From contig CAVXJH010000007.1 of NCBI GenBank assembly GCA_963762115.1, positions 16,694-80,693 on the forward strand: a stretch of 64,000 nt of DNA, written 5' to 3'. Under the pieces are notes generated by a model. The model saw only the letters and a program-made list of their open reading frames with translations, made no database searches and was not told where the DNA came from. Shown in pieces: positions 21,757-42,170 of this stretch. The DNA comes from Candidatus Babeliales bacterium. Lineage in GTDB: Bacteria > Babelota > Babeliae > Babelales > JANWKD01. The position numbers and the translations under genes are program-made. Position 1 is the stretch's first letter. The number at the start of each line of letters is the position of its first letter.

Positions 21757-21808
21757 TCAATAAAATTAATGACATCCTATATAATCATCTACTCTTGATT
21801 GGATCATC

Positions 21809-22993: not shown

Positions 22994-23022
22994 GACCATT
23001 TTGCTTTATTCAGCCATATTAC

Positions 23023-23565: not shown

Positions 23566-23583
23566 ACAAAAACTCTCTAATTT

Positions 23584-24555: not shown

Positions 24556-24668
24556 ATATTCCCAAACATGCGCAATTAACAGATATTATAATTCTATATA
24601 GTTAATGGATATTTGTCAAAATTAACTCAATTAGAATTTTTATCAAAAAAACAAATCATTGTTATTTT

Positions 24669-25622
24669 TCAAAATCGATAACAAAGTTGTGCACAAGGCG
24701 CACCATAAGAATCAACACCACAGGAAAAAGCACATCGATCGGAAAGTTTTTTATCAACCACTTTGCTTGCCGCAACAGCAAAAATCAACCCAAGTCCTGC
24801 ACCGGCAACAAGTTGTGAAAGATAATGCCGATTACAATTCACAAAATCAGCAAAAACAAAACCGGCAAAAAGCCCAAGCGGCACTCCCCATGCAGGCCCA
24901 TGACGCATGCCAAATAATGACGCCATAAACATCACATTTGCCATATGCCCAGAAGGCAAACCGCCAGAAGATCGATGATGTCGATTAAAATTCTCATGCC
25001 AAGGTCGAAGGCATGATTTAAAGCGTAATTTTTTTATAATATCTTTTCCTGAATGCACAAACGGTAATCCTATTGCAAACATTCTCCCTGTTAAGCGCAA
25101 ATCTTCGTCATTGGCAAAAATTGCAAGACTTGAAAGAACAACCATAGGGACGCCAATGCCATAATGAGCAATTGAATGGCAATGCTTAGGAAATTGATTA
25201 ATATTTTTGTGACATGAACTATCATAAAAATGTACTTGCAATTTTTCATCATGCATACGAGAAAGAAGATAGAAAGGAACAAAACCGGTGATTACTTTTG
25301 CACTATCAACTGAAAAAAGATTTTTTAATAATAATCCGGCATCACAAAAAATTTCACCCAACCCCTCAAGCATACATGGCGCAGGTTGATTTATTATCTT
25401 TCTTCTTGAAAATGGCGTTTTATTACGTGATATAGGTGAACAATTAACTAAATATATTGGTTGTAAACAGTACCAACATAGTATGCTAAAAATAATTTTT
25501 TTTATCATGTGCATACCATTCACACCACTATACCCATTTTGACATTTACTGCATAAGTATAAAAAATATGATGCTAAAAAGGCAATAAAAAAAGGCTCGA
25601 AAAATCGAGCCTCAAAATACAA
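24669..25622 (-). CDS. PAP2-family phosphatase-like membrane protein
   Basis: KSCLRPW, PSGH, NRHYLSQLVAG approximating PAP2 motifs KxxxxxxRP / PSGH / SRxxxxxHxxxD. Confidence 0.55.
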   Translation of the reverse strand: MYFEARFFEPFFIAFLASYFLYLCSKCQNGYSGVNGMHMIKKIIFSILCWYCLQPIYLVNCSPISRNKTPFSRRKIINQPAPCMLEGLGEIFCDAGLLLKNLFSVDSAKVITGFVPFYLLSRMHDEKLQVHFYDSSCHKNINQFPKHCHSIAHYGIGVPMVVLSSLAIFANDEDLRLTGRMFAIGLPFVHSGKDIIKKLRFKSCLRPWHENFNRHHRSSGGLPSGHMANVMFMASLFGMRHGPAWGVPLGLFAGFVFADFVNCNRHYLSQLVAGAGLGLIFAVAASKVVDKKLSDRCAFSCGVDSYGAPCAQLCYRF

Positions 25623-25636
25623 AAAATGAACTATTT

Positions 25637-26455
25637 TTATCCAATAAACGTTAAAAATTCACGATTAAATTTTTCCAATTCATCATGCCATAAGCCATGA
25701 CCACTTTCTTCAAAACGAACTAATTTTGAACCTTTAATGTTCTTATGCATATATTCACCAAGCTCAAAGGGACAAATTTTATCTTTTGTACCATGTAAAA
25801 TTGCCGTTGGCACCGTAACTTTTGCAACATCTGCACGCAAGTCAGCATCACGCAAGGCAACCAAATACTCAGCAGTTGCATTAGGTGCAGCATCAGTACT
25901 CATTTGTTCAATCCAATCAGCAAACTGAGAACTTGGCTGTTTATTAAATAATATTTTGCCAAATGCCGCTGACATTGCAGGACGATCTGCATAACTATTT
26001 TTTATGAGTACATCAACTTCCTCTTTAGTGAATCCCCAAGGAAAATCTGGGCGCTTAGTAAAACAAGGAGCTGCGGCACTCAAAAAAATTGCTTTTGCAA
26101 TACGATGTTGATTATGTTTTGCCAAGTAATGCAACACCATTGCGCCACCAATTGAAAAGCCTGCAATAGTCACCTCTTGAAGATCAAGCGCATCAATGAC
26201 TTTTCTAATATCATCAGCAAACATATCATAGGTGTAAGGGCCCCAAGGCGCATCAGATCTTCCTGATCCTCGCATATCAATTGCTACACAACGATATCCT
26301 TTAGCCGGAAATTGTACTAATTGATATTCAAACATTCTATGATCAAATGGCCAACCGTGAATAAATAAAATTGTTTTACCTACACCCCAATCACGAACAT
26401 ATAATTTTACCCCTGGTGCAGTTTCTATACAATGTGAAGACAATCCTTCTTTCAC
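25637..26455 (-). CDS. alpha/beta-hydrolase (non-heme haloperoxidase/esterase-like)
   Basis: ILFIHGWPFDHRMFEYQ, AIDMRGSGRSD, GxSxG elbow GFSIGG. Confidence 0.8.
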   Translation of the reverse strand: MKEGLSSHCIETAPGVKLYVRDWGVGKTILFIHGWPFDHRMFEYQLVQFPAKGYRCVAIDMRGSGRSDAPWGPYTYDMFADDIRKVIDALDLQEVTIAGFSIGGAMVLHYLAKHNQHRIAKAIFLSAAAPCFTKRPDFPWGFTKEEVDVLIKNSYADRPAMSAAFGKILFNKQPSSQFADWIEQMSTDAAPNATAEYLVALRDADLRADVAKVTVPTAILHGTKDKICPFELGEYMHKNIKGSKLVRFEESGHGLWHDELEKFNREFLTFIG

Positions 26456-26544
26456 AATTTCCCTTTCAATACCATATTTTTACACTCTACAATGCAAAGC
26501 ATACGCAAGAGAGAAATAAGCTGTAAAGAGATATATTATTAACG

Positions 26545-28008
26545 TTATTCGGCAATATTGGTTGTAAAGTTAATTGGCGTCAATGGCGTTGGTGAAATTG
26601 CAACGTTAGAAACATTAACAAAATCACCTCCCTTATTATTGCTGGCAAAATTACTATAAATATGATTATTTACCCCAAGATTATTGATACCAATATTGTT
26701 ATTAGTAAGTGTATTCTCACGGACCTGACAGTTAGAACTTGTCGTATTAACTGATAATGCCGCGGCTAACAAAATTCCGTTAGTAACATTGCCTTGTGCT
26801 ATACAATTGAGCAGAACATTATTATTACCATTAATTTGAAAACCATTGGTATTATTATTTGCTTTGCATTCTTCAAGCGTTATATCATTGCCTGCAATTT
26901 GAAAGCCATTTGTCGTATTATCATGAGCAAAATTTTGTATAAAATTCACATTAGCACTTGTGCCATTACTTGGTGCAATAATAAAACCAGTCTGATTTTC
27001 ATGAGCAGTACATTGTTGAAAAGCACTCTCAATAAGAAAATTATTTATAAAACCGGGCCCTGTGTTACTATTTGCCGTACAATTTAAAAACTGAAAGGCG
27101 ATATTCCCTGTTGTTGAAAATCCTGTGACGTTATTATTGCTAATACACGAATCAATAATAACATTTGTGTTTTGATTAAGTATAAAACCAGTGGCTGAAC
27201 AAAAATATGCTTCATTTTTTAATAAAACAACATCGATTGCACTGGTTATCGACATACCATTTCTATTATTAAAAAAGGTAACATTTTGTACCCCGATATT
27301 TTGTGGCACCCGGCCCGTTGAAGTATTATTAGCAATTGTTATGCCATTATTTGTCATATTACGAATAGTACCATTTTTGATAAGAATATTTGGAAAACCA
27401 TTTACCACAATACCGGTCGTATTTGTTGTTCCTATACCAATAATCTCATTACCATTAAGATCGATAACCACATCATTACTATTAACGGTAATTGCTCTAA
27501 TTTGAAAATCACTTACGGTGATATTTTGGCCATTAGTTTGTTGTTGCACAACGGCTTGTTGCTGCTGAACAGTAAGATTTTGTTGTTGCTGTATAAGATG
27601 GCCGTTTACTATGGTAAACGGTGTTGTTTGTAATGATGGTTGCACAATTTGAAATGTGCTCTGTCCCGTCGTATTTATTGGATTAATCTGATTAAAGCTA
27701 ACAGAATTTTGTATTGACGAAGTAGCATTTTGACCATTTTGCAATGCATTTAATGTTGTCTGAGCAGCAATACAATAATAGCCAGGCGTTGAAATCACAA
27801 AAGGAATATTAAATTGTGTTATTTGCGTTTGAAATAAACAACCTCTTGTTTGCGGCAGTCCATCGCCTTCAACACTTTTTTGATATTCAATAATATTGTG
27901 TATAATTTTTTGTTCAAAATCATCACTATTGAGCTCATATTCAGCATATAAACCATAAGAAATAAAAAAAAGAATGTATGATAAGAAACAATAGAAAAAT
28001 TTTAACAT
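26545..28008 (-). CDS. secreted Asn/Thr/Gln-rich parallel beta-helix repeat protein
   Basis: signal peptide; repeated N-x-x-I/V-x-N-N units typical of right-handed beta-helix (pectin-lyase-like) folds. Confidence 0.5.
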   Translation of the reverse strand: MLKFFYCFLSYILFFISYGLYAEYELNSDDFEQKIIHNIIEYQKSVEGDGLPQTRGCLFQTQITQFNIPFVISTPGYYCIAAQTTLNALQNGQNATSSIQNSVSFNQINPINTTGQSTFQIVQPSLQTTPFTIVNGHLIQQQQNLTVQQQQAVVQQQTNGQNITVSDFQIRAITVNSNDVVIDLNGNEIIGIGTTNTTGIVVNGFPNILIKNGTIRNMTNNGITIANNTSTGRVPQNIGVQNVTFFNNRNGMSITSAIDVVLLKNEAYFCSATGFILNQNTNVIIDSCISNNNVTGFSTTGNIAFQFLNCTANSNTGPGFINNFLIESAFQQCTAHENQTGFIIAPSNGTSANVNFIQNFAHDNTTNGFQIAGNDITLEECKANNNTNGFQINGNNNVLLNCIAQGNVTNGILLAAALSVNTTSSNCQVRENTLTNNNIGINNLGVNNHIYSNFASNNKGGDFVNVSNVAISPTPLTPINFTTNIAE

Positions 28009-28068
28009 GATTAGGCCCTCAAAAAAAATAATTTTTTTCTTACTAAAGCTTAATCATGTCAAGACATA

Positions 28069-28962
28069 TTATACAATATTTTGTGCTTGTTCTCTTATTT
28101 TCTCAAGTTCAATCTTAATCGAAATCGCATGAGTACTGATTATGGCATCAGAACATTTTGCAGCAATAGTATTAATTTCGCGCATAAGTTCTTGCAAGGT
28201 AAAATCAATACGTCGTCCTTTTTCAATTTCTTTTGAACTAATCATAGTCTTTAATGCCAGCAAATGACTTTTAAACCGAACAATTTCTTCATGAATATCC
28301 ATGCGTTCTAATTCATAAAAAAGCTGGTTGCGCTTAAGTTCAACAACATCCGGCTGTTGTTGATCCAACTCAATCAATTTTGCTGCAATCATAGTTTTAC
28401 GTTGCTCAAACAGATTTGTTGCTGCATGTTCAATAATCATAAGTTGATCAGCAAGAATAGCACCTCTCACTTCAATATCTTTTTCTAGAGAACGACCTTC
28501 AACTTCCTGAGCATCAATCAACTCACCAATTAATTGGTGAACAATAGTTATTATTTGTTGTTTTGTTGATTCCTCAATATTTACTTCTGCTTCAGAAAAA
28601 ATATTAGGCAAACTAAGAAGTTCGGCAAGCGTGAGATTGCCCTCAACGTTAAAAGTTTCTTGTATATGCTTAATTGCAGTAAGATAACTCTGAATAATAT
28701 GCGTTGCTGGTTCAACGGGACCTTTAAATATAGTGGGATTTTGCATCGCAATATTAAAAGTGATTTTCCCGCGATACAAAAGATCCTTAAATAACTTAAT
28801 AAGCTCAACTTCCATAGATTGCATAGCATAAGGAATTTTACACGTAGCTTCAAAATAACGTGAATTTAACGATTTCAGTGTTAACGAAAGATAGGCTTTA
28901 TTACCATCATGCAGAGGCAATTCAACAACTTTATTGGAAAAACCTGTCATACTTCGTATCAC
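28069..28962 (-). CDS. yicC: YicC-family stress-induced protein
   Basis: N-terminal MIRSMTGF...LKSLNSRYFE and C-terminal DIHEEIVRFKSHL signatures. Confidence 0.8.
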   Translation of the reverse strand: MIRSMTGFSNKVVELPLHDGNKAYLSLTLKSLNSRYFEATCKIPYAMQSMEVELIKLFKDLLYRGKITFNIAMQNPTIFKGPVEPATHIIQSYLTAIKHIQETFNVEGNLTLAELLSLPNIFSEAEVNIEESTKQQIITIVHQLIGELIDAQEVEGRSLEKDIEVRGAILADQLMIIEHAATNLFEQRKTMIAAKLIELDQQQPDVVELKRNQLFYELERMDIHEEIVRFKSHLLALKTMISSKEIEKGRRIDFTLQELMREINTIAAKCSDAIISTHAISIKIELEKIREQAQNIV

Positions 28963-29696: not shown

Positions 29697-30722
29697 CTAG
29701 AAGTTTAACAATGTCTTTTGACCAAAAAACTTTTGCTTTAAAAAAGGTAACATTTTATGAGGAATCTGTCGACCGCGGGCAGTTTTTTCTAAATATCCCT
29801 GGCGCATTAAAAATGGCTCATATACTTCTTCAAGCGTTTCTTTATCTTCACCCAACAAGGCCGCCAACGTTTCCAAGCCAACGGGCCCACCATTAAAATT
29901 TTCAACCATTTTTCTCAAGATCATTATATCAACCGTACTTAACCCATCCTCATTAATACCTAGAAATTCCAAAGCCTGTATCACTAAAGCATCTGTTGCT
30001 TGATTAAGGTTAGTAACCTGAGCAAAATCACGTACTCTGCGTAGAATCTTTTTTGCCGTTCTTGGCGTTCCTCGTGAAGATTTGGCAATAAGCAACGCTG
30101 CTTGCGGAGAAACAATCAAATCAAGAAAAACAGCATTTTGTAAAACAATTTTTTGCAATTCATCATCAGTATAAAAATCAAGTCGCTCAACAATACCAAA
30201 ACGACTCCGCAATGGCGCCGAAAGCATACCACTTTTTGTTGTTGCGCCAATCAACGTAAAAGGATGAATGGGTAAATTGATCGATTTTGCCCCTGCACCC
30301 TGACCGATAATGACATCAACACGAAAATGTTCCATGGCACTATATAATACTTCTTCAACATTGGTGGGCATACGGTGAATTTCATCAACAAAAAAAATAT
30401 CACGCGGTTCTAAACTTGTTAACAAAGCAACCAGATCACCGGTACGCTCAAGCATAGGACCACTACAAATTTTTATACCAACACCCATCACCTGCGCCAT
30501 AATTTGGGAAAGCGTTGTTTTCCCCAAGCCTGGAGGCCCAAAAAGCAACAAATGATCAAGTGCTTCCCCGCGCATTTTGGCTGCCTGCGTATACACACTT
30601 AATTTTTTCTTTAGTTCTTCTTGTCCCAAATATTCATCAAATGATTTGGGCACAAAATTGTGCAATTGTTCTTCGGGTGTCTCTTGTTGCAACAAGAGAC
30701 TAATTGAGTTTATTTCATGCAT
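29697..30722 (-). CDS. ruvB: Holliday junction branch migration ATPase RuvB
   Basis: Walker A GPPGLGKTT, Walker B FVDEIHRM, sensor regions; 341 aa. Confidence 0.9.
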   Translation of the reverse strand: MHEINSISLLLQQETPEEQLHNFVPKSFDEYLGQEELKKKLSVYTQAAKMRGEALDHLLLFGPPGLGKTTLSQIMAQVMGVGIKICSGPMLERTGDLVALLTSLEPRDIFFVDEIHRMPTNVEEVLYSAMEHFRVDVIIGQGAGAKSINLPIHPFTLIGATTKSGMLSAPLRSRFGIVERLDFYTDDELQKIVLQNAVFLDLIVSPQAALLIAKSSRGTPRTAKKILRRVRDFAQVTNLNQATDALVIQALEFLGINEDGLSTVDIMILRKMVENFNGGPVGLETLAALLGEDKETLEEVYEPFLMRQGYLEKTARGRQIPHKMLPFLKQKFFGQKTLLNF

Positions 30723-30939
30723 TATAATAACTATTTTATGTATTGAGTAATAATAACTGGTTCGATGTTATTTTTAATATGATCAAATCTAATTTTTTTT
30801 CATAATAAAGTCTATTGATCAACATTATAAATGCGACAATCACTCTATTTTTCTCTGTTCAAAAAACTGGTATTATAAGCAAAATTAACTTATTATAAAT
30901 ATTATTTTTTTATAGTATTTCTTACAAAGGAAAATATAT

Positions 30940-31521
30940 ATGTATTTTAAAAAATCAATCTTCACCTTATTTTTAACAATTTCTATTTTCAGTACAACGT
31001 ATGCCATGGACCTAATATCAAAAGAAACTTTGCAAGATAAAATTATCACACCAGCAATTATCTTAGGAATCGGTGCAGCAAGTGGTGCTGCTCAAGCGAT
31101 AATTATGAATAAAATAAATACACATTATCATGCTAAAAACCATTGGAACATTTCTAAAAATGCCATCTTGGGAGCTTTATTTGCAATACCCGCAACAGTC
31201 ATAGCAACGGCAGAGATAGACTCTTTGCCAAAGTTAGATAATGAAGGCATCATTTGGTCCGTCGCATCTTCAACTACTTACAAAATGATAATATGCATGG
31301 GTCATTATTATTTTATAAAAAAAGCTTTCATCGAGCAGAACAACTTTTTTAATACGCCCGAAGCAAGAAAAAATCGAAAAACAACTAACGATCTTCAAGC
31401 TTCCAATTTTTTTCAAAGTAAGAGCAAGCATCACTCTGCGGCCATTTTTTTTCTCAATCCAACGATATCAATTGTATCAACCTTTTTGACGGCATCAATA
31501 CGCAATAATCTCGATCATTAA
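30940..31521 (+). CDS. hypothetical membrane protein (193 aa)
   Basis: signal/TM segments; stop codon overlaps the stop of the rodA 3' remnant (cattaaac). Confidence 0.45.
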   Translation: MYFKKSIFTLFLTISIFSTTYAMDLISKETLQDKIITPAIILGIGAASGAAQAIIMNKINTHYHAKNHWNISKNAILGALFAIPATVIATAEIDSLPKLDNEGIIWSVASSTTYKMIICMGHYYFIKKAFIEQNNFFNTPEARKNRKTTNDLQASNFFQSKSKHHSAAIFFLNPTISIVSTFLTASIRNNLDH

Positions 31522-31598
31522 ACCCCTAAGCCCATATCAAACTTTCCCATAGCAATACCATGTAACCAGCCAAAGCTGACAAGCATTAACCCAATAAG
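31518..31598 (-). repeat. rodA 3'-end remnant copy A (encodes ...LIGLMLVSFGWLHGIAMGKFDMGLGV*)
   Basis: in-frame homolog of the intact rodA C-terminus with the same TAA stop context; most diverged copy. Confidence 0.75.
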
Positions 31599-31603
31599 AT
31601 GCT

Positions 31604-32398
31604 TTATCCATTCACTGAAATAAATGGAACCATTTTCCCGGTAACGCGAGGCAAAACACCATCCCATTTTTCTATTGCCTTAAATTGCGCTTCAATTTCT
31701 TGTAGACGAATCAATTCTAACGTTACTGATTCTTTTTTGACTTGCAATGAGAACGCTTCCGCTTCAGCGCGAGCTCGCGTCTGCAATGCTTCTTCTTGCA
31801 CTTTTACGGTTAAATTTTTCGCCGTTTTTGCACTTTGTTCTGCAATTTGCTTATCTTCAACTGCTTTAATAAAATCGGGAGAAAAATCAAGATGAATAAA
31901 ATTGAAATCAATTAAATCTAAATAACGAGGCGCTAACCGTTCTTTTAATTCATTAATAACTTTCTCTTTTGCTTCGTGTCGACTTTGAATAAGATCTTCT
32001 GCCGTAAATTTGGCAATAACAGCTTTTACACTTTCCTGAGTAAATGGATCAATAATAACCCGATCAAAATGTATTCCGATTTCTTGATATAATTTTAATA
32101 CATCGCTAATTCTATAATTGATAACCATACCAACCGAAACAGTTTGTAAGTCACGTGACATACCTTTTGTTTCAATTGCCGCCTTATTAATTTGTGTGTT
32201 AATTTTAATGATAGAATCAATAAGAGGAATTTTATAATAAAATCCTGATATGTTTTCTGTACTAATTACTCTGCCCAACCGCAATTGAATGGCGGTAAAA
32301 CCAGGTTCAATGGTATAAAATGATAAAGGTAAAAGAAAAAAAACCAGAGAGATTATTGCCAACAAGATAAGAGTGAATGCAGTACGAATATAATTCAT
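31604..32398 (-). CDS. SPFH/band-7 (prohibitin/HflC-like) membrane protein
   Basis: N-terminal TM, SPFH domain features, C-terminal coiled coil. Confidence 0.7.
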   Translation of the reverse strand: MNYIRTAFTLILLAIISLVFFLLPLSFYTIEPGFTAIQLRLGRVISTENISGFYYKIPLIDSIIKINTQINKAAIETKGMSRDLQTVSVGMVINYRISDVLKLYQEIGIHFDRVIIDPFTQESVKAVIAKFTAEDLIQSRHEAKEKVINELKERLAPRYLDLIDFNFIHLDFSPDFIKAVEDKQIAEQSAKTAKNLTVKVQEEALQTRARAEAEAFSLQVKKESVTLELIRLQEIEAQFKAIEKWDGVLPRVTGKMVPFISVNG

Positions 32399-32477
32399 GT
32401 AACAATACTTTCGATGAGACTTTTAGAAATTAATTAAGATACTATAAGTATAAATATATACCTGAAATGCACAACAA

Positions 32478-32546
32478 TTAAACACCTACCCCCCTATCAA
32501 ACCTTCGCATGGCAATACCATTCAACCACCCCAAATTGCCCATTTG
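32478..32546 (-). repeat. rodA 3'-end remnant copy B (encodes ...QMGNLGWLNGIAMRRFDRGVGV*)
   Basis: ~50-nt near-identical to the rodA terminus at 33159..33210. Confidence 0.8.
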
Positions 32547-32619
32547 CACTAATTGCATAAATTCATCATACTAAATAAGTAATTATATTTTAATAAGCAC
32601 ATTCATACTAGAGAAAAAT

Positions 32620-33159
32620 TTGAATATTTATCTATCAAAAAAGCTATTATTATTGCTATTATCTTTATCCCTCAATCTATTCTGTCTTTTACCCATAGAT
32701 TCCCGTTTTTCCTTACAAACATTTAATAAAGAATCAGATAAAAATTGGATCATTAAGTTATTTAATGCAAATTATGAACACCTAGTTGATCAAAATGCTA
32801 AAGATTTTTCAATTGAATGGACATTAGACAATCTAAGGCTTTTTCCAGAGTATAAAGAAAAATTAATTATAAAAACTGCCACTATTAAAACTATTCCTGC
32901 TGGCTTTATAGCTTATTCTATAGACAATAAAAATAGAGGTAACATCGATATGCTTTGTATTGATTCCCAATGGCGTAGAAATGGATGTGGCTTCAAATTA
33001 TTAAATTACGCCGTAGAAGATTTAAAGCAAAAAGGTATTTCAAAAATAAAATTAGGGGTTACGAACATAGCTGCTCAAAAATTATATGAAAAATATGGTT
33101 TTAAAAAAAAGAAAAAATGGCCATATGGTGATTCTATTATTATGGTCTTATCTCTTTAA
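32620..33159 (+). CDS. GNAT-family N-acetyltransferase (with N-terminal signal/TM)
   Basis: acetyl-CoA motif WRRNGCGFKLL...KLGVTNIAAQKLYEKYGF; stop overlaps the rodA stop (ctttaaac). Confidence 0.65.
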   Translation: MNIYLSKKLLLLLLSLSLNLFCLLPIDSRFSLQTFNKESDKNWIIKLFNANYEHLVDQNAKDFSIEWTLDNLRLFPEYKEKLIIKTATIKTIPAGFIAYSIDNKNRGNIDMLCIDSQWRRNGCGFKLLNYAVEDLKQKGISKIKLGVTNIAAQKLYEKYGFKKKKKWPYGDSIIMVLSL

Positions 33160-34268
33160 ACACCCACCCCCATATCAAACCTCCGCATAGCAATACCATT
33201 TAACCAACCAAGACTCGCAAAATTAATCCAAAGATTGGTGATTCCATAACTAATAAAGGGAAGCGGTATACCAACAATGGGCAATAAACCAATTACCATG
33301 CCAATATTAATAAATGCCGAAAGAACAATATGCAAAAGCAATCCCACTGCCAATAATTGAGCACTAATATTTTGTATACTCATAATGACCCAACACAATC
33401 GCCAAAATAATCCTATAAATAATAATAAAAGACCGAGTGCCCCAACAAAGCCAAATTCTTCACCAATCACTGAAAAAATAAAATCAGTTCTACTTTCGGG
33501 CAAGAACATAAACTTATTCTGTGTTCCCTCAAGAAAGCCCTTACCAAATAAACCGCCTGAACCAATAGCAATTTTTGATTGTTCAATCTGATAACGCTCT
33601 TTATACATTTCACCCTGACCCAAAAATACAGCAATTCGTTTTTGTTGATACGGCTTCAAAAAATGCCACGTTATAGGTGTTGTCATCAAAACAGCAAAAA
33701 AGAGATATATAAAAAATTTTTGCGGCATTCCCACAAACCAGATCATTAAAAAACCGGAAATAAGAACAATGAGAGCAGTTCCTAAATCCGGTTGTTTTAA
33801 AATTAATAAAAAGCTTACGCCTAATATGGTTAAAATGGGTAAAAATTCTTTAAATGCCACTTTAGGGAAATTCTTCTGGGTATAAAAGTAATAGGTAATA
33901 TAAGCAGGCAAAAATAGCTTTGCCAATTCTGAAGGCTGAAATTTAATAAAAAACAGGTTTATCCAACGCTGAGCCCCCATTCCTACACTACCTTTAATTA
34001 AGGTAAACAGAAGAAGCCCAATGACCACCCAATACAAAAAATACCCCCATCGACATAAAACACGGTAATCAATACCACAAAAAGCAAAATAAATCCCCAG
34101 CCCTGATAAAATGCCAAGAGCCTGCTTTTTAAAGAATAATGAATAAGGTTGACCTGTTTTATAGGTAGCACTATAAATTAAGATAAGGCCTATTCCTGAT
34201 AAAAAACAGGTTAAAACAAAGCTAAGCCAGTCAAAATAGCGCAAATAGCGCTGATCAATCAAAAACAT
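33156..34268 (-). CDS. rodA: SEDS-family protein (RodA/FtsW)
   Basis: 10-TM profile and conserved FtsW/RodA motifs (GQPYSL..., IGEEFGFVGAL, PFISYGIT). Confidence 0.8.
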   Translation of the reverse strand: MFLIDQRYLRYFDWLSFVLTCFLSGIGLILIYSATYKTGQPYSLFFKKQALGILSGLGIYFAFCGIDYRVLCRWGYFLYWVVIGLLLFTLIKGSVGMGAQRWINLFFIKFQPSELAKLFLPAYITYYFYTQKNFPKVAFKEFLPILTILGVSFLLILKQPDLGTALIVLISGFLMIWFVGMPQKFFIYLFFAVLMTTPITWHFLKPYQQKRIAVFLGQGEMYKERYQIEQSKIAIGSGGLFGKGFLEGTQNKFMFLPESRTDFIFSVIGEEFGFVGALGLLLLFIGLFWRLCWVIMSIQNISAQLLAVGLLLHIVLSAFINIGMVIGLLPIVGIPLPFISYGITNLWINFASLGWLNGIAMRRFDMGVGV

Positions 34269-34441: not shown

Positions 34442-36166
34442 ATGTTTAAGCAAATATATATAAAAATGTTTTCAATTTGCATTATAGCAGCCTTAACAAC
34501 TCAAAGTTTTGGCATGTTCATACTTACAAAAAAATTACATAAAAAAAACTGTGCATACGTTATGTATAGACAATCACAAAATGAAGAACAAGCAACAGTA
34601 TCATCTCATGCAAATAACCAAGAAACACTCTTTTCGGAAAAAGAAACTGATGCTCCTTTGGAAGCCTTAACAAGTTCCTCTGAAGAATCTGAAGAAACGG
34701 TGCAATCGAAAAGTATTTTTTCACGATTACTCGATTATTTTACCCCCGTACCAGCAACCGTAGAAGTTAACTCACACATTTATAATGGAAACAAAATTGA
34801 AATGTCTGAAAACCGTTGCATAAAACAAATCTATGTAACGAATCAATTTGGTACTCATGGTGGTGGCGATGCAAGTTGTGGCTATCAATCATTGAAAAAT
34901 GCTATTTATCTTATAAAGGCATTACAAGAATCTAGCACAACAGAGAGTTTAAATAACGATTTGAATAATCTTACTATTATCAATACTTTATTTGGACCAG
35001 TGCACAAAAACTCTGTCGGCACTTGGCGTGCAATCATCATGCAAAAGCGTGCTTTAATAGTATTCAAAAATTATATTTATCAACGCTTAGAACTTAAAAA
35101 ATTAGATGAAATACAAGAAAATACCTGTATACAATTTGAAAGCAAAAAACGTTTTCTTCTGAATAAAAGTAAAATTCGTGAGGTCTTTGCGACCTTACTC
35201 AATAAATATGCTCAAGAAGCAGCAGAAGCATTAACAAATGGCCAAACAACACAATTATATATTAATCCTGAACTTATCATTGAATATATTCAAAATAATT
35301 TAAATCCTGAAGTTATACAAGATCCTCAGGAATTTATAGAAGAAAGCTCCATTTGCTTAGATGAGAATCCAAGCATTGAATGTCATGACCTTGATGAACT
35401 ATTTGGTTTATTATATACCTACCTCCGAGAAAACAACACCATTGACACCTATATTAACCTTTCGTCAATAAAAACATTTGAGCTCTCCCTTGATAATTCA
35501 AAAGAGGCTTTTGATCTCTATAATAATAACAACTCAAATCCATCACAATTGGATGGTGATTGGCTCCAAGAAGAAGAAATTTATGCCTTAAAAAATCTTG
35601 AAGCAGCAGACAACATTCATTGTATGAAAGAAAGCAGAAATGGCCTATTGCATGGACTTGATTACAAGTTCACCATTATTGAAGATGTTAACGATTTAAC
35701 CGGCACACATGGTGACACTATTAATCACGAAATTTTCCAAGAAATAGAACTCAAATCACAAAAAGGTATTAATAAAGCAAAAACTGCCTTAGCAGCAGAT
35801 GAAATAAAAAAATATATCCATGCTTTTATTGTAGGAACTGCTGACAGATCTCGATCAACTCATGGTCATTGGTTTGTGTTACTGCTTTATAAGCATGACA
35901 ATATGCATGAATATATTGTTATGGATTCAGCCAATAACGCAAATCGCTTATATGACGAACGGGTGAAAAAAATTATTTCGCTACTAGAAAATCAAGATTT
36001 AACGGATAAAATTGTCGCATCACCTGAAGAATTAAAAGAACTTGAAAATAAAATTAGAACTAAAGTTGCTGAACATGATTTGGAAGCACTTGATCTTATT
36101 GAAAACTATAAACAATGTGGTGGAACAATTGATTTTTCTGAAGAAACACAAGCATTATTCTCATAA
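34442..36166 (+). CDS. secreted protein with C-terminal CE-clan (Ulp1-like) cysteine-protease-like arrangement
   Basis: signal peptide; ordered His (STHGHWFVLL), Asp (IVMDSANN, +19) and Cys (NYKQCGG, +64) near the C-terminus. Confidence 0.45.
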   Translation: MFKQIYIKMFSICIIAALTTQSFGMFILTKKLHKKNCAYVMYRQSQNEEQATVSSHANNQETLFSEKETDAPLEALTSSSEESEETVQSKSIFSRLLDYFTPVPATVEVNSHIYNGNKIEMSENRCIKQIYVTNQFGTHGGGDASCGYQSLKNAIYLIKALQESSTTESLNNDLNNLTIINTLFGPVHKNSVGTWRAIIMQKRALIVFKNYIYQRLELKKLDEIQENTCIQFESKKRFLLNKSKIREVFATLLNKYAQEAAEALTNGQTTQLYINPELIIEYIQNNLNPEVIQDPQEFIEESSICLDENPSIECHDLDELFGLLYTYLRENNTIDTYINLSSIKTFELSLDNSKEAFDLYNNNNSNPSQLDGDWLQEEEIYALKNLEAADNIHCMKESRNGLLHGLDYKFTIIEDVNDLTGTHGDTINHEIFQEIELKSQKGINKAKTALAADEIKKYIHAFIVGTADRSRSTHGHWFVLLLYKHDNMHEYIVMDSANNANRLYDERVKKIISLLENQDLTDKIVASPEELKELENKIRTKVAEHDLEALDLIENYKQCGGTIDFSEETQALFS

Positions 36167-36254: not shown

Positions 36255-37103
36255 TTAAAAAATCTTATAATGACACACTTCTTCTAATTCTTGGATAATT
36301 TTTTCAATAACTATTAAAGGCAACCGAAACTGCTTAAGCATAGTAGGTTTTCTCAAAAGATCTCGACACAAAACATATCCTTTTTGAATAAGAATTCTCT
36401 TTTGTCGATTATTAAGCGATGTTAAAACAGTAACAGGATATAATGCATACTTATCGATAAGTTCCGCTAAATTGTTTTTTAAAGGGTATGACCATGCGAG
36501 TAACTTCATATCTACACATTGAGCATACGCAATTGCTTCAGTGGTAAAATTAGTATTGGTAATAAGCATTTTTTGAACATGTTTTTTTTCAGGAAATTGT
36601 TCAATTATTTTTTTTTGAATATCATCAAAACGAGATTTAAAATAAAGAGGAACTTTGCTATCAGATTTCAAACCCTGGCGATTATGAAATTTACATTCAC
36701 CCACCATTATAGTTACGTCTTTAGTAGCAATAAGATCAATTTCATGACTTATACAACTTCCCTGAACAAATTTTCTTGTTTGGGTTATATAACCTTGATG
36801 CAAAAATAATTGAGCAATAAAATCTTCAAATGGATATCCCGAAGGACCCAACTGAATTAAAGCATTTTTTAAACTATAACGAGCGGCAATAGAAGGTTTT
36901 TCTTGTTGCAAAGCATTAAATGCATATTTATAAATTTCATGAGTAGTCTTGAGCTCAGTATTTTTTTCAATACTCTCAATTAATGAATCAATTACTAATG
37001 GATCAGCACCAGATTTTTCTAATGATCTTCTAAATTTTTGAGCATTAAATTCTTGAAGTTCACCGGATGCTTTTTTGATAATTTTTTTCATAGGTTCAAT
37101 CAA
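36255..37103 (-). CDS. ATP-cone domain fused to PD-(D/E)xK (Mrr-cat-like) restriction-endonuclease-like domain
   Basis: N-terminal ATP-cone-like IIKKASGELQEFNAQKFRRSLEKSG; C-terminal GYPFEDFIAQLFLHQGY...EIDLIA...GECK nuclease motifs. Confidence 0.55.
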   Translation of the reverse strand: MIEPMKKIIKKASGELQEFNAQKFRRSLEKSGADPLVIDSLIESIEKNTELKTTHEIYKYAFNALQQEKPSIAARYSLKNALIQLGPSGYPFEDFIAQLFLHQGYITQTRKFVQGSCISHEIDLIATKDVTIMVGECKFHNRQGLKSDSKVPLYFKSRFDDIQKKIIEQFPEKKHVQKMLITNTNFTTEAIAYAQCVDMKLLAWSYPLKNNLAELIDKYALYPVTVLTSLNNRQKRILIQKGYVLCRDLLRKPTMLKQFRLPLIVIEKIIQELEEVCHYKIF

Positions 37104-37173
37104 AAATTTTTTAATTTTTATAACTGAACATAAGCTTCACTTGATTAGCCCTATAAAGTCAACACAATAATTC

Positions 37174-38082
37174 TTATGATAACAAATCATTATTGCAATA
37201 AGAAACAGTTGGCAGCAAAGTATTTCTTTGTTGCTCAGGAATAATTCCCTTTTGATCAAAAAGCATTACAGGATCGCTATTAAAACACCGTGTTTTAAAA
37301 AGATTATAAAATTGAGCATAATAAAGGCGATCTAAAACAATATTCATTAAAGAAACATCTTCAACATGCTGCATAATGGGGCTTATCGCAGCAATAAGCT
37401 TTGGTTGCTCAGCTTCCAGGGCAAGAACCATAGAATAAGCAGAATTTAATATCGCAAATGCACGTTCATGCTCTTCACCATCAAAAGACATTTCATCAAA
37501 TGCTTTAAACATGGATGCAATACTATGTATTCTCATGGCAGATTTTTGATTATTCTCATGCGTTTGAGCGCACGAATTAATAAGCAAATCACTATTATTA
37601 TGCAAATATTCTTCAACAATTTTCATTCTTTCAAATGCAATCGCCTCAAAAATCTTTATTGCATTATTTTGTTCTTGTGAATCAAAATACTGCGTAACCA
37701 CTTGCCAAATTTTTTGTGTTTCTTTTCTATGCATACATAAACGATTAAGCTTTTTTATCAGATGAGTAAGCTTTTGTATTAATTCTTCTGAATTATCATT
37801 TTTTGTTTTTAATTTCCAAAGAGTCATCAAAATTTTTGATACCACTTTATCATACTTTATATCTGCCTGAGCATATTGATACGAAGCAAAAAGTGCGTTA
37901 GCAACAAGTTGTATTTCATCACCAGATACATGCTCAAAATAAGTATCAACAAGACATTCCATATGAGATGAAACCATTTTTGATAATGGGCTATTTGGTG
38001 ATTCTAAAATGAGAATTTCTTCGGAATACAATGAAAAAAGCGTTGCGTTCAAAAACAATACTACTAAAAAAACATTTTTCAT
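37174..38082 (-). CDS. hypothetical secreted protein (302 aa)
   Basis: signal peptide MKNVFLVVLFLNATLFSLYS. Confidence 0.45.
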   Translation of the reverse strand: MKNVFLVVLFLNATLFSLYSEEILILESPNSPLSKMVSSHMECLVDTYFEHVSGDEIQLVANALFASYQYAQADIKYDKVVSKILMTLWKLKTKNDNSEELIQKLTHLIKKLNRLCMHRKETQKIWQVVTQYFDSQEQNNAIKIFEAIAFERMKIVEEYLHNNSDLLINSCAQTHENNQKSAMRIHSIASMFKAFDEMSFDGEEHERAFAILNSAYSMVLALEAEQPKLIAAISPIMQHVEDVSLMNIVLDRLYYAQFYNLFKTRCFNSDPVMLFDQKGIIPEQQRNTLLPTVSYCNNDLLS

Positions 38083-38140
38083 AACGAATTATCCCATAGG
38101 TGAGGAATGAATAGCATATAAAGACTTAAAGGAAAAGAAA

Positions 38141-38216
38141 TGGTCGGGGCGGCCAGACTCGAACTGGCGACCCCTCGCTCCCAAAGCGAGTGCGCTACCA
38201 ACTGCGCCACGCCCCG
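38141..38216 (-). tRNA. tRNA-Pro (anticodon TGG)
   Basis: reverse complement folds as cggggcg-acceptor, D-arm gcgcagttggtagcgc, anticodon loop tTGGg, T-arm, CCA encoded. Confidence 0.85.
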
Positions 38217-38311
38217 ACAGACGTAATCAATGTAATAAAGGTAATGTAGCCGTTTTTATTGAGAAATGCAACTTCTTTTTAATGCGTATTTTACTCTACG
38301 CCTAAAAACAA

Positions 38312-38554
38312 TTATTCTTTGTCGTCGCACGTATCATTAAAATCAATTTTGAAATTAATTTTTTTTTGTTTAATTTTTTGTACAAAACCAAATTTAGTTT
38401 CAAAAAGCATAATAAGACCGCAATAAACCAGAATACTACCCAAAACTATTTTAAAGATTGGAATATCTAGGTTAAAAATAGCTTTCAATAATACCGTAAT
38501 ACCCAAGAGTAATAACAGCACACCGGCCAAAAAATTTCCATCCAAAAAATTCAT
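38312..38554 (-). CDS. possible small membrane protein (81 aa)
   Basis: the track ORF extends over tRNA-His; only the part from MNFLDGNF onward is plausible coding; no clear RBS. Confidence 0.2.
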   Translation of the reverse strand: MNFLDGNFLAGVLLLLLGITVLLKAIFNLDIPIFKIVLGSILVYCGLIMLFETKFGFVQKIKQKKINFKIDFNDTCDDKE

Positions 38555-38571
38555 AGAAAGCCCCAAAAAAA

Positions 38572-38648
38572 TGGGGTGAGTGGTGGGGCTCGAACCCACG
38601 ACCCTCAGAGCCACAACCTGATGCTCTACCAACTGAGCTACACTCACC
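38572..38648 (-). tRNA. tRNA-His (anticodon GTG) with G-1
   Basis: reverse complement: extra 5' G pairing with C73, anticodon loop tGTGg, T-arm, CCA; followed by cccc-tttttt-gggg hairpin. Confidence 0.85.
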
Positions 38649-38813
38649 ATAAATTATTTTAATTGCTTTTAAATGTACTGTTTTTTACGTCAAATTGCAA
38701 CCACTGCTTTATTTTAATGTATACATCAGGCAACCTTGTCTGTCTGAAGCCCTCATGCTACACTAAAAGCCTTCAATAGAGGAACTTTTAATAAACAATG
38801 GTAAAAAGCTACA

Positions 38814-41534
38814 ATGATTCCCTTAAAAATACAACTTAAAAACTTCCTAAGTTACGGTCCAACACTACAAACCATTGATTTTGGACCATATCCACTCATT
38901 TGCCTTAGTGGTAAAAATGGTCATGGAAAATCGGCATTGTTGGATGCGATTACCTGGGCGGTTTGGGGACAAGCACGAAAAATTTCTGGCGTTGCTAAGG
39001 CAGATAATCACTTATTAAGACTTGGTCAAACCCAAATGATGGTTATTTTTGATTTTTTATTCAATGATAACCAATACCGGATTAGACGAGAATATGCAAA
39101 AACATATGGCAAACCTTATGCAACCTTAGATTTTGGCATAATTCAAAAGGAAACGCAGCTCTATCTTCCTCTCACCAGCAAGACCATTCGCGATACTCAG
39201 GCCATTATTGAAACAACTCTGGGGTTAGATTTTGACTCGTTCATCAATTCTGCTTTTTTACGACAAGGTCAATCAAACGAATTTTCCAAAAAATCTCCCA
39301 AAGATCGCAAAGAAATTCTCAGTTCAATTCTGGGTCTAAAACATTATGACATTATGAAAAAATTGGCTTTGAATAAGGCTAGAGATGCTACAACACAGTT
39401 ACAACAATTACATAATTTTAATGAAAAAATCGAAAGAGAACTAGAAAAAACAAGTGAAATTGCTATAAAAATCATTGAAATACAACAACAAATAGTTCTC
39501 TCTCAAGCGCAAGACAAAAAAATTATCCAAAAAAAAATTGAACTTGAAACAGTAAAACAAAATTACACTCAAGCAAAAAATGCTGAGCAAGTATTACATT
39601 TTCAAATTCAACAAAAAAATAAAGAACAAGAGACTCTTCAAATAAAGCTGATTGCTTTATATAAAGATTGGAAAAAAATACATGCTCAACAAAAAAACAT
39701 GTATGATCTCACGTCTCTAGAAACTAAGAAACAAGAAATACTCGATAAAATTTCACTATTTCAAAAACAATTACAAAAAAGTTTAGAACTTAAAACAAGC
39801 ATTTTACAGTATCAACAAGAAGAGCAGATTCTTTCAAAAAAATTTCAGGATTCCTTCCAACAACAAATTCAAGAACACCAAATACAACTTCTTTCATTGC
39901 AAACAGCTGTTATTACTAAACAAGCAGAAGAAAAAGAACTGTGCAATAAACAAAATGCTCATGTTCAATTGCTTCAAGAAATTACCAATAAAGTCACCAC
40001 ATTAGATGAAAATATAAAAAAAATCACCAATTCTGATAATGAAAAAACTCTAGAAGAGAAAAGGTTCGAAAAGCGAAAAGCATTTTATCATCAATGGATT
40101 GCACAAGGCAATATGGTTGCTCAAGAGTTATCAAATATTCAGCAAAAGCAACTCTTACAATGCAATGATCAAAATACAAGCTGCCCCGTGTGCGAACAAA
40201 ATTTATCTGCATCAAGAAAAAAATTTTTAAAAGCAAAATATACTCAAGATGAACAACTTCTCAAACATCGTTTTACTCGTTTAAGTGTTATTACCAAAAA
40301 ATTAAAAATAGTTTTAGTTAAACAACATGCACAATTAGAAACATTAAACAATCAATTGGCACTCCGTGCACAACTAAATAATAATCTTCAAGAATTCACC
40401 AAAAATAAGCTTGCTTTGGAAAATGAGCGCATAATAATTACTAAGCATCTTGCGCAACTTCAACAAGAAATTGTTCAATTTACCACTGAACTTACCGACA
40501 AAAATAAAGACATTCAGCTTTTGCAATCAACACAATCTGAACAAATAATTAATGATCCGTCATATAAAAACTTAAAAAACTCTCTTGAGCAAACACAAGA
40601 AGCTTTAGATAATACGCTTTATGATGCCCAAGAACATCAAAAAACGACCCAAGAATTACAGCTGCTTGAACAACAGCGTGTGCAAGCTCATGTATATTTT
40701 CAAGATGTAGACAAACAAAAAAACAGAAAAGAAGAAATTCAAAATCTTTGTCGCATACTCAAATCAATAAAAAAAGAAATTCGAGAATACACACAAAAAA
40801 TAAAAGAATATGCGCATTTAGAAGCAATCTTGCACACCATACAAACTGAAGAAAACATCATTAACGGTGAAATACAAACGTTACAAGAACAAAAAGAAAT
40901 CCTTTTGCTTGAAAAAGGAAGATTAGAAAATGAACGAACAAATTTACTCATTCTAGAAAAAGAACATGCACGCCAGAAAGAAGAAATTAATTCTCTCAAG
41001 CAGACAGTCGATGATTATCAAATATTAGCAACAACATTTGGCAAAGATGGTATTCAAGCGTTACTTATTGAGGAAGCATTGCCCGAAATTGAACAAGAAG
41101 CAAATGCTTTGCTCAATCAATTGACCAATAATCAATCACATATATTTATTGAATCGCTACGAGATTTACAAAAAGGTGGTACCAAAGAAACATTAGATAT
41201 TAAAATTTCTGATGCGCAAGGCATTCGACCTTATGAACTATTTTCTGGTGGAGAAGCATTTAGAATCGACTTTGCACTAAGAATTGCCATTTCAAAATTG
41301 CTTGCAAGACGTGCAGGAACTTCATTACAAACGCTCATAATCGATGAGGGATTCGGTTCACAAGATGAAGAAGGACTTGCCTATATTATGGATGCATTAC
41401 ATAAGATTCAAGATAATTTTTCTAAAATTATTATCGTTTCTCATCTCACCTCAATGAAAGATCAATTTCCCGTGCATTTTTATATTGAAAAAGGTGCTCA
41501 AGGCAGTACGGTTAATGTTGTTGAACAAGGTTAA
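38814..41534 (+). CDS. sbcC: SbcC/Rad50-like SMC-family ATPase with zinc hook
   Basis: Walker A LSGKNGHGKSALLDAITWAVWGQ, long coiled coils, central CPVC zinc-hook, C-terminal signature/Walker B ...LIIDEGFGSQDEEG; no sbcD adjacent. Confidence 0.7.
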   Translation: MIPLKIQLKNFLSYGPTLQTIDFGPYPLICLSGKNGHGKSALLDAITWAVWGQARKISGVAKADNHLLRLGQTQMMVIFDFLFNDNQYRIRREYAKTYGKPYATLDFGIIQKETQLYLPLTSKTIRDTQAIIETTLGLDFDSFINSAFLRQGQSNEFSKKSPKDRKEILSSILGLKHYDIMKKLALNKARDATTQLQQLHNFNEKIERELEKTSEIAIKIIEIQQQIVLSQAQDKKIIQKKIELETVKQNYTQAKNAEQVLHFQIQQKNKEQETLQIKLIALYKDWKKIHAQQKNMYDLTSLETKKQEILDKISLFQKQLQKSLELKTSILQYQQEEQILSKKFQDSFQQQIQEHQIQLLSLQTAVITKQAEEKELCNKQNAHVQLLQEITNKVTTLDENIKKITNSDNEKTLEEKRFEKRKAFYHQWIAQGNMVAQELSNIQQKQLLQCNDQNTSCPVCEQNLSASRKKFLKAKYTQDEQLLKHRFTRLSVITKKLKIVLVKQHAQLETLNNQLALRAQLNNNLQEFTKNKLALENERIIITKHLAQLQQEIVQFTTELTDKNKDIQLLQSTQSEQIINDPSYKNLKNSLEQTQEALDNTLYDAQEHQKTTQELQLLEQQRVQAHVYFQDVDKQKNRKEEIQNLCRILKSIKKEIREYTQKIKEYAHLEAILHTIQTEENIINGEIQTLQEQKEILLLEKGRLENERTNLLILEKEHARQKEEINSLKQTVDDYQILATTFGKDGIQALLIEEALPEIEQEANALLNQLTNNQSHIFIESLRDLQKGGTKETLDIKISDAQGIRPYELFSGGEAFRIDFALRIAISKLLARRAGTSLQTLIIDEGFGSQDEEGLAYIMDALHKIQDNFSKIIIVSHLTSMKDQFPVHFYIEKGAQGSTVNVVEQG

Positions 41535-41558
41535 TATCAAACAATAATTATCTCACTA

Positions 41559-41798
41559 TCAAGGCACAACGACAACGTTTCCAATCAAAGGAATTTGTTT
41601 TTTTAATGATTCTTCAACACCAAAACGTATCGTCATTAATGAAAAAGGGCACCTTTTACAGGCACCCTTTAAAGATACATAAACAATATTGTTTTCAAAC
41701 TTAATAAATTCAATATCGCCACCATCTTTTTGAAGCATTGGTCGAATTTCATCCAATGCTTCATGAATTTTTTGAATAAGCTGTTCGCTTACACCCAT
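41559..41798 (-). CDS. NifU-like (Nfu C-terminal domain) Fe-S assembly protein
   Basis: KDGGDIEF...VSLKGACKRCPFSLMT motif. Confidence 0.6.
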   Translation of the reverse strand: MGVSEQLIQKIHEALDEIRPMLQKDGGDIEFIKFENNIVYVSLKGACKRCPFSLMTIRFGVEESLKKQIPLIGNVVVVP

Positions 41799-42145
41799 GT
41801 TAGTTGTGCAACAGGTGCAGTATCACTTAGACGTTGGCCAAGTGATCTAAGACGCGTATAACCGCCTGGGCGATTAGCATACGTTGGTGCTATTTCTTTT
41901 ACAAGCTTAACAACAGCTTCTTTTTTATAAGGCAACAATGCATGAATACGTCGATATGTATTAAACGTATCGCCAGTTCTTGCAATAGTAACCACTTTTT
42001 CAGCCAATCGTTGCACTTCTTTGGCATTCGCTCTTGTTGTGACCAATTTCCCATAAGTAATTAAATGGATCACTTGGTTTCGCAACATTGATCGGCGATG
42101 TGGAGCTTTTAAATTTAATTTTTTTTTGCCATTTTGATGATTCAT
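41789..42145 (-). CDS. rplQ: 50S ribosomal protein L17
   Basis: family match, position after rpoA. Confidence 0.85.
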   Translation of the reverse strand: MNHQNGKKKLNLKAPHRRSMLRNQVIHLITYGKLVTTRANAKEVQRLAEKVVTIARTGDTFNTYRRIHALLPYKKEAVVKLVKEIAPTYANRPGGYTRLRSLGQRLSDTAPVAQLTWV

Positions 42146-42170
42146 GGTATGTATTACCTTTAGTTACAAG

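Follow-up and report, generated by a model that had tools for sequence, protein, structure and literature searches.

How do three tandem copies of the 3′ terminus of rodA come to lie in direct orientation at one chromosomal site, with a single unrelated gene between each copy and the next? The question is posed by a stretch of 64,000 nucleotides (nt) from a Candidatus Babeliales bacterium (contig CAVXJH010000007.1, positions 16,694 to 80,693 of the forward strand; hereafter the window), in which intact rodA is followed by an acetyltransferase gene and by a gene of the SPFH/prohibitin family, each with a displaced copy of the last rodA codons beyond it. An earlier note on this DNA read the arrangement as the footprint of elements that integrate site-specifically into the end of a protein-coding gene, possibly by an undescribed cassette mechanism. 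We favor a different reading, at somewhat better than even confidence, namely that the displaced copies are not recombination sites but scars, left when recombination anchored in homology was closed by an illegitimate joint. On present evidence, the locus reveals neither a new recombination enzyme nor a new cassette system.

The source belongs to the amoeba-associated Dependentiae (Babeliales): the best genome match is a Candidatus Babeliales chromosome, and the RodA of the window has hundreds of relatives in the Dependentiae at 62–99% identity. A scan of genome contigs yielded two loci from the Dependentiae, L005 and L006, its other matches being in unrelated phyla. The features of the locus are as follows.

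33156–34268, minus strand: rodA, intact, 370 residues, FtsW/RodA/SpoVE family (Pfam PF01098, E = 3.6e-87)
33156–33231, minus strand: copy C, the functional rodA 3′ end (..NFASLGWLNGIAMRRFDMGVGV*)
32620–33159, plus strand: GNAT acetyltransferase gene (Pfam PF00583), convergent with rodA
32546–32619: spacer upstream of the GNAT gene, stopping at the inner edge of relic B in the alignment
32478–32545, minus strand: relic B, a displaced rodA 3′ end (GNLGWLNGIAMRRFDRGVGV*)
32399–32477: 79-nt spacer from relic B to the SPFH gene
31604–32398, minus strand: SPFH/prohibitin (Band_7) gene, 264 residues (Pfam PF01145), same orientation as rodA
31518–31606, minus strand: relic A, a more decayed rodA 3′ end (..LIGLMLVSFGWLHGIAMGKFDMGLGV*) with two indels
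30940–31521, plus strand: membrane-protein gene, 193 residues, hypervariable
30768–30832: conserved region upstream of ruvB
29697–30722, minus strand: ruvB, conserved, at the far border of the variable slot

Read along the minus strand, the order is rodA with its end C, GNAT (convergent), relic B, the 79-nt spacer, SPFH (in the same sense as rodA) and relic A, beyond which lie the membrane-protein gene (convergent), ruvB, yebC and yicC. A repeat search, a degenerate core pattern and self-BLAST agree on three direct-orientation copies of the rodA terminus. Specifically, the repeat search returned one three-member direct-repeat family (31515–31582, 32475–32542 and 33153–33220; 75–79% identity to the reference copy), and the 28-nt degenerate core matched exactly three times in the 64 kb as against no match in 100 shuffles, which rules out a chance origin of the repeats. 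Self-BLAST aligned C with B at 89% over 54 nt, C with A at 79% over 80 nt and B with A at 81% over 58 nt (E-values 1e-8 to 1e-11). Copy C corresponds to the final ~75 nt of rodA. The reading frame and a TAA stop are retained in all three copies, the minus-strand translations being ..SLGWLNGIAMRRFDMGVGV for C, GNLGWLNGIAMRRFDRGVGV for B and ..VSFGWLHGIAMGKFDMGLGV for A; fuller translations of the three copies read ..GWLNGIAMRRFDMGVGV, ..GWLNGIAMRRFDRGVGV and ..GWLHGIAMGKFDMGLGV. Similarity among the copies ends downstream at the stop codon, and similarity to rodA reaches upstream to about −66 nt for B and −89 nt for A. The stop codons of the two convergent genes overlap a rodA-type stop inside the sequence TTAA, that of GNAT at C and that of the membrane-protein gene at A.

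In all of these respects, as in the presence of one gene between successive copies (GNAT, then SPFH) and of the membrane-protein gene below A, the description given in the earlier note stands. Its extent for copy A is correct at the start (31518) but not at the end, which falls at ~31606, with two small indels on the way, and not at 31598; the apparent rodA similarity at 31607–31637 is the C terminus of the SPFH gene itself. A second, independent assembly from Logan (L093) matches the window at 99.9% identity over 31531–33623 (2 differences in 2093 nt), a span that begins within relic A, takes in SPFH, relic B, GNAT and copy C, and ends in rodA. The array is therefore not an assembly artifact.

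That DNA has been inserted at the 3′ end of rodA is evident from the closest relatives. In L001, whose RodA is 89% identical to that of the window, rodA and ruvB are separated by 99 nt with no gene between them, and the block upstream of ruvB (window 30772–30831) begins 6 nt past the rodA stop. In L005, L002 and L004 (RodA 79%, 81% and 84% identical, respectively), rodA is followed by a convergent homolog of the membrane-protein gene; L005 and L002 run on into ruvB, and the L004 contig ends within the membrane-protein gene. The unoccupied site is thus present in relatives, as rodA–ruvB in L001 and as rodA–membrane-protein gene–ruvB in L005, and these empty or simpler sites uphold the earlier suggestion that DNA came in with a replacement end for rodA. 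Moreover, relic A, the membrane-protein gene and ruvB of the window are collinear with the genuine rodA end, the membrane-protein gene and ruvB of these relatives, such that ~1.6 kb (end C, GNAT, relic B and SPFH) now separates the body of rodA from what was formerly a rodA end.

More distant loci hold other genes at this position. The order in L003 (RodA 72%) is rodA, a convergent gene of 419 residues, SPFH, a gene of 269 residues and ruvB, and that in L096 (RodA 67%) is rodA, a gene of 224 residues, SPFH and further genes. No second rodA end was found in any of the six related loci examined, L003 and L096 included. Along rodA itself, a switch of nearest relative of the kind expected in a mosaic gene was not visible, at the low power afforded by relatives that are 71–82% nucleotide-identical. 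The ending FDMGxGV* is restricted to the closest RodA proteins (at least 79% identity), and both relics therefore derive from this narrow clade. In this Babeliales lineage, the stretch between rodA and ruvB is a variable slot; among the loci compared, only this species has the relics. The repeat is likewise distinct from an intergenic element of the repetitive extragenic palindrome (REP) type, as the earlier note had supposed: it is derived from rodA, all three copies in the 64 kb lie at this one locus, the six related loci have none, and it forms no hairpin, for which reasons dispersed repeats of the REP or miniature inverted-repeat transposable element kind were rejected. Chromosomal integration hotspots between core genes were reportedly described by Touchon and colleagues in 2009. 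The present interval resembles such hotspots in holding different accessory genes in different relatives, but differs from them in that the events at rodA left duplicated relics of the terminus, with individual joints visible.

The sequences of the copies bear on how the insertions arose. Copies B and C differ at 6 positions in 18 codons, of which 5 are synonymous third-position changes, and the states that B carries (TTG, GCC and CGA) recur in L001 and L004, whose rodA genes are functional. B and C look like two alleles, both of which appear to have evolved as coding sequence. This is the pattern of an incoming anchor copy that was a diverged functional allele, seen here in a small sample. 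It sits less easily with duplication in situ, in which template switching or staggered-break repair would have duplicated 66–90 nt of the target on both sides of the insert as a very long target-site duplication, and the downstream copy, at first identical to the other, would then have decayed. Synonymous differences that match functional rodA alleles are unexpected under neutral drift from C, and our own estimate for the synonymous excess against in-situ duplication is p ~0.04, a weak test with six sites only. The end of relic A in L093 is also B-like (ATG>AGG), and B-type ends appear to circulate as alleles. Even so, in-situ duplication would account for the structure of duplication, insert and duplication with microhomology at one joint, for the TAA stop common to the three copies and unlike that of the relatives, and for the same architecture at a second gene terminus described below. 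It also needs no rodA-adjacent donor, an advantage with an orphan gene such as GNAT and a phage-related one such as SPFH. The collinearity of relic A and the membrane-protein gene with the native arrangement, which might be held against this explanation, fits either model. On balance, we regard duplication in situ as unlikely.

Relic A carries the replacements N>H, R>G and R>K (RR>GK) at residues that hardly vary among 120 RodA homologs, together with its two indels, and is a decaying pseudogene end. Its inner edge abuts the stop codon of SPFH at the microhomology TTCCnTTTATT..ATGGA, where the SPFH 3′ end (..TTCCATTTATTTCAGTGAATGGA, encoding VPFISVNG*) can be set against rodA (TTCCCTTTATTAGTTATGGA, encoding LPFISYG), and this edge has the appearance of a microhomology joint. 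The native SPFH 3′ end happens to be similar to rodA at this point, and the same VPFISVNG* ending of SPFH is found in L085, which has no relic A. The two relics are of unequal length, at ~66 nt for B and ~89 nt for A.

Strain-level exchange through relic A is visible in L093. The identity between L093 and the window breaks at 31531–31534, near the stop codon and inside the final ~15 nt of relic A, past which L093 carries a membrane-protein allele of 40% protein identity, with near-identity restored at the first ~35 nt of the gene. The relic end of L093 (GATAGGGG--TAGATGTTTAG) is closer to relic B than to relic A, shares the ATG>AGG change and is frameshifted. This switch of allele inside the relic indicates that strains exchange the membrane-protein gene by homologous recombination, with the crossover within the relic, and that rodA-end sequence probably travels together with the gene. 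Over the gene itself (window 30940–31521 against L093:3–566), only the signal-peptide end is conserved between the two alleles. Among lineages whose RodA is 79–89% identical to that of the window, the membrane protein retains 23–40% identity, and to judge from these values the gene is hypervariable.

The age of relic A is best considered alongside L085, in which SPFH is followed after 24 nt by a membrane-protein homolog with no relic between them. The spacer upstream of SPFH in L085 (~80 nt) is weakly similar to the 79-nt spacer of the window and lies at the same position. Relic A, with its frame open, is 77–80% identical to functional rodA ends, as compared with 81% nucleotide identity for SPFH between L085 and the window, and on this comparison the SPFH insertion may predate relic A, which could have been brought in with the membrane-protein allele from a donor in which that gene adjoined rodA. 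The serial order that had been read from graded divergence, with A as the oldest copy, is consequently not secure. As a separate observation, the first 15 nt of L085 (AGGCTTAGGGCGTGA), 80 nt upstream of its SPFH gene, resemble the rodA end (GGCTTAGGGGTTTAA), at the distance that relic B keeps from SPFH in the window. This match of 15 nt only, on a contig of 1146 nt, could belong to a genuine rodA end or to a relic.

With respect to the inserted genes, GNAT is a near-orphan with two database relatives, one 99% identical (same species) and one 31% identical (an unrelated locus); its GC content is 27% as compared with 34% for the window, and a search of phages, which did not extend to plasmids, gave no match for it. 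SPFH/prohibitin genes are widespread in the Dependentiae and not fixed in position: SPFH follows rplU in L091, L092 and L098, sits after rodA plus one gene in L003 and L096, and occurs inside the phage-type contigs L086–L090 and L099. Prohibitin genes are also present in 64 deposited phage genomes. In a neighbor-joining tree, 246 of 300 bootstraps placed the SPFH genes of the window and of L085 (88% identical) as sister to the phage copies, and only 51 of 300 joined the window gene to the copies beside rodA in L003 and L096. This clustering suggests that the SPFH gene of the window is a separate phage-related acquisition and not a case of conserved synteny; the opposing possibility, that SPFH is ancestral here by synteny with L003 and L096, is weakened by the same bootstrap values and by the rplU-adjacent positions. 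Among the contigs themselves, L099 (IMGVR_UViG_3300021478_000104) encodes an Erf-like annealing protein, a replication initiator, RusA and tail fiber genes in addition to SPFH, and L086–L090 carry RusA and a weak tape-measure match besides SPFH. Their prohibitin/SPFH genes are 75–81% identical to the chromosomal gene, and the GC content of the contigs is near that of the Dependentiae. The contigs may come from phages that infect Babeliales and have a host-like copy of SPFH.

The architecture seen at rodA recurs 27 kb away within the window, at the 5′ end of an unrelated gene, where two further features are paired.

3459–3597, minus strand: functional promoter and 5′ end of an ADH-like gene, the partner of the relic at 4740–4877
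4740–4877, minus strand: relic of the ADH-like promoter and first ~15 codons, 91% identical, upstream of an ankyrin gene

Here, an ankyrin-repeat gene (3737–4708) next to the ADH-like gene (2290–3504) is flanked by direct copies of the ADH 5′ terminus, the relic copy being 139 nt long with the translation MKTLVFNGVGNIGLAYRF*. The scars are thus not tied to one target, and the recurrence of the same layout at the ADH 5′ end means that a rodA-specific site is not required. With gene-terminus relics at two unrelated targets, an att system specific to rodA is unlikely.

This second case weighs directly on the explanation advanced in the earlier note, in which a recombinase of the tyrosine or serine type, whose gene lies elsewhere or has been lost, would recognize an attB site in the last ~60 nt of rodA, and small elements with a rodA-like attP would have inserted in series, as at tRNA genes, and then decayed to single genes. 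Several features of the locus are of the kind that such integration produces. Direct repeats of the target terminus bound each insert, the incoming copy makes the gene whole again, the site is empty in relatives, tandem arrangement is a product of accretion at one att site, and variable genes directly after rodA are found in L003 and L096 as well. However, a Pfam scan for integrase, recombinase and transposase families found none in the three inserted genes or in 20 neighboring open reading frames (ORFs; 14354–28962 and 36255–43223), a scan that reached ~15 kb to one side of the locus and ~7 kb to the other within the 64-kb window. Genes typical of phage, conjugative or mobilizable elements were also absent between the repeats, each interval holding GNAT or SPFH alone, and the inserts are single intact genes of 0.6–0.9 kb with no element debris.

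The repeats themselves offer no better support for a recombination site. No hairpin was found in them, the minimum free energy computed for single-stranded DNA being 0 to −0.1 kcal/mol for C and −3.8 to −7.4 kcal/mol for B and A. No strand of any copy had a fold z-score below −2.0, and the copies had no match in Rfam. An attC-like or hairpin site and a known RNA family were ruled out on this basis, and inverted-repeat structure was likewise absent. Xer-dependent modules (IMEX and pdif modules) are bounded by 28-bp dif-like sites with XerC and XerD arms around a 6-bp spacer; a by-eye comparison of the core with the dif consensus of E. coli and Acinetobacter, from which that of the host may differ, gave no convincing XerD arm. 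In the few events available, the relics are unequal in length, the L093 breakpoint falls near the very end of the relic and not in a shared core, and the inserts of L003 and L096 lack repeats. Viral sequence gave no sign of such a system either: the rodA-end pattern had 0 matches on viral contigs in a pattern scan, RodA-like sequence was absent from L099 and L100, the phage contigs with the closest SPFH genes, and at E < 0.05 from the SPFH-bearing contigs L086–L090, and no integrase was matched among the L099 ORFs scanned. Taken together with the microhomology joint, the strain breakpoint inside relic A and the second locus at another gene terminus, these results disfavor both a site-specific integrase and a new cassette mechanism, and we consider serial site-specific integration improbable.

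A single transposase gene was found in the window, an IS200-like Y1 gene at 7860–8330 (PF01797, E = 4e-42) with a GC-rich hairpin downstream (~7810–7835). It was rejected as the cause of the array, as it lies 23 kb away and the repeats have no hairpins; the IS200-type family is not known to make long target duplications.

Integration into a protein-coding gene is, in any case, not an undescribed type of event. The 15-kb prophage e14 of E. coli K-12, which has its own site-specific recombination system, sits at icd, supplies a new icd 3′ end and leaves the old fragment, icdC, at its far end (PMC13626634). This precedent, which lends some plausibility to integration at rodA, also means that neither a protein-coding target nor a displaced C-terminal pseudogene is new. 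The two cases are alike in that the 3′ end of a housekeeping protein gene is hit, the replacement end is slightly different and the old C terminus remains as a direct-repeat pseudogene. They differ in that the rodA locus has single-gene inserts of 0.6–0.9 kb, no recombinase in the scanned ORFs, three tandem copies and unequal relics.

Staphylococci offer a known case of units that accumulate in tandem behind a conserved protein gene: composite staphylococcal cassette chromosome (SCC/SCCmec) elements build up at the 3′ end of orfX (rlmH), each delimited by a direct copy of the attachment sequence. SCC elements require the Ccr serine recombinases, their repeats measure ~15–18 bp and their units span multiple kilobases. 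The array at rodA is similar in its tandem units at the end of a conserved protein gene and in its direct-copy delimiters, whereas its repeats of 66–90 nt, its single-gene inserts and the lack of a recombinase in the scanned ORFs set it apart. There is a likeness to integron arrays too, in that single-gene units are each bounded by a repeat copy beside a fixed anchor. Unlike integrons, however, the array has no intI (no integrase family was found in the scanned neighborhood) and no attI was found; its repeats are not attC-like palindromes, and its genes are in mixed orientation with their own upstream regions. What is distinct about the rodA locus is the combination of single-gene inserts and unequal tandem relics with no element or recombinase found, and the use of the relics by general recombination.

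The retention of an open frame and a stop in both relics could alternatively be taken to mean that the repeats are functional and under selection, whether as a terminator or regulatory RNA, as a small membrane peptide (a 49-codon ORF spans 31518–31667) or as antisense targets. Relic A is also less diverged than might be expected had it already been present when L085 and the lineage of the window diverged. Against this, no terminator-like site lies at either relic and promoter-like sites are no more frequent than chance, which leaves a terminator or promoter function with no support from site predictions, and neither an Rfam match nor a stable predicted fold speaks for an RNA. Relic A has replacements at near-invariant RodA residues and indels, L085 dispenses with the relic in its 24 nt between SPFH and the membrane-protein gene, and the relic end of L093 is frameshifted. 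Selection for a function of the repeats is accordingly a highly improbable explanation.

Returning to homology-anchored recombination, we propose that accessory genes would enter the rodA–ruvB slot on DNA of related genomes, with SPFH probably arriving on phage-related DNA. Incoming DNA would recombine by ordinary homology in or beside rodA on one side, and the other side would be closed by an illegitimate joint at microhomology, a process that corresponds to homology-facilitated illegitimate recombination, for which we adopt the term and concept of PMC6382021. An equivalent form would be a Campbell-type single crossover of a circularized fragment through short rodA-end homology. Were the illegitimate joint to fall within the last 66–90 nt of a rodA copy, one end would stay functional (C), and the other copy would be stranded (B, then A) or would hitch-hike in with a neighboring gene, in either case decaying since. 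No dedicated integrase would be necessary, and the relics would then offer extra patches of homology for the exchange of neighbors, above all the membrane-protein gene. What the sequences show directly is the insertion relative to close relatives, the collinearity of relic A with the native order, the exchange between strains through the relic, the second locus of like layout and, within the ORFs scanned and the repeats folded, no recombinase gene and no hairpin. The enzymes, the donors and the sequence in which things happened are inferred; RecA is one candidate for the enzyme, and a phage protein for annealing, like the Erf homolog of L099, is another.

The locus has much in common with homology-facilitated illegitimate recombination as described: a homologous anchor on one side with what looks like a microhomology of a few bases on the other, no site-specific enzyme, partial duplication of the anchor if the joint lies inside it, and a foreign single gene beside a conserved one. 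That process was originally described in natural transformation of Acinetobacter and Streptococcus pneumoniae, and was shown experimentally in competent, free-living bacteria. The present case, in contrast to the transformation work, is read from sequence, concerns the Dependentiae, and has donors that were not found.

Several points weigh against homology-anchored recombination. The synonymous excess between B and C rests on six differences, and the statistical arguments as a whole concern very short sequences. The search for a recombinase was confined to 64 kb of the genome. The arrangement of rodA, one gene and SPFH exists in L003 and L096, but no donor was found with a C-type rodA end and a convergent GNAT gene, and GNAT is at most 31% identical outside the species. 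In the absence of a GNAT donor, this explanation needs an unsampled sister lineage or a first insertion by another route. The shared TAA of the three window copies, as compared with TGA in four relatives, also fits an origin within the lineage. Finally, two joints within the final 90 nt of the same gene are a coincidence, which could be explained by selection against the loss of neighboring genes together with ascertainment, a joint outside the anchor leaving no visible scar.

A bolder version would make the relics working homology handles, such that short core-gene termini (rodA 3′ and ADH 5′) let single genes loop out, exchange between co-infecting strains and reinsert, with a phage Erf-type single-strand-annealing recombinase, of the sort encoded on the SPFH-bearing phage contig, perhaps as the catalyst. 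We consider this decidedly doubtful; if true, it would amount to an integrase-free, integron-like hotspot of gene exchange in an obligate intracellular bacterium.

Other features of the window lie outside this argument. A 489-residue orphan gene (5882–7351) is flanked by 135-nt repeats (5699–5833 and 7675–7809, 95% identical), and further direct repeats pair 4861–5033 with 7448–7710 and 5031–5577 with 12349–12895. The upstream copy at the orphan gene runs into sequence of the 3′ end and downstream flank of a NUDIX gene (5009–5521), as if a NUDIX unit had been duplicated and its NUDIX gene deleted; a second NUDIX paralog, 88% identical, is located at 12324–12839. The remaining short repeats of the self-comparison are explained by tRNA genes, for Val, Asn and Asp in 13169–13605 and for Pro and His in 38141–38647. 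Divergently upstream of rodA in all close relatives is a gene for a protein of 574 residues (window 34442–36166) with no Pfam family, homologs of which lie at L001:6096–7835, L004:1629–3371 and L005:5788–7842. Its motifs ..GGGDASCGYQSLKNA.. and ..HGHWFVLLLYKH.. suggest a candidate cysteine protease effector of papain-like or deubiquitinase type, the fold being a guess. The ORF at 36255–37103 has weak Pfam matches to two domains, an ATP cone and the catalytic domain of an Mrr-type restriction endonuclease.

The Dependentiae are obligate intracellular bacteria of protists, and the routes by which they gain genes are little known. The rodA locus preserves individual events of gene gain with their joints still readable, and its displaced terminus relics mark crossovers, as seen in the membrane protein swapped between strains that are otherwise 99.9% identical. 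If such relics prove common in these genomes, a simple computational search for them would reveal recent horizontal gene gain, and their presence would indicate that the lineage actively recombines with diverged DNA by homology.

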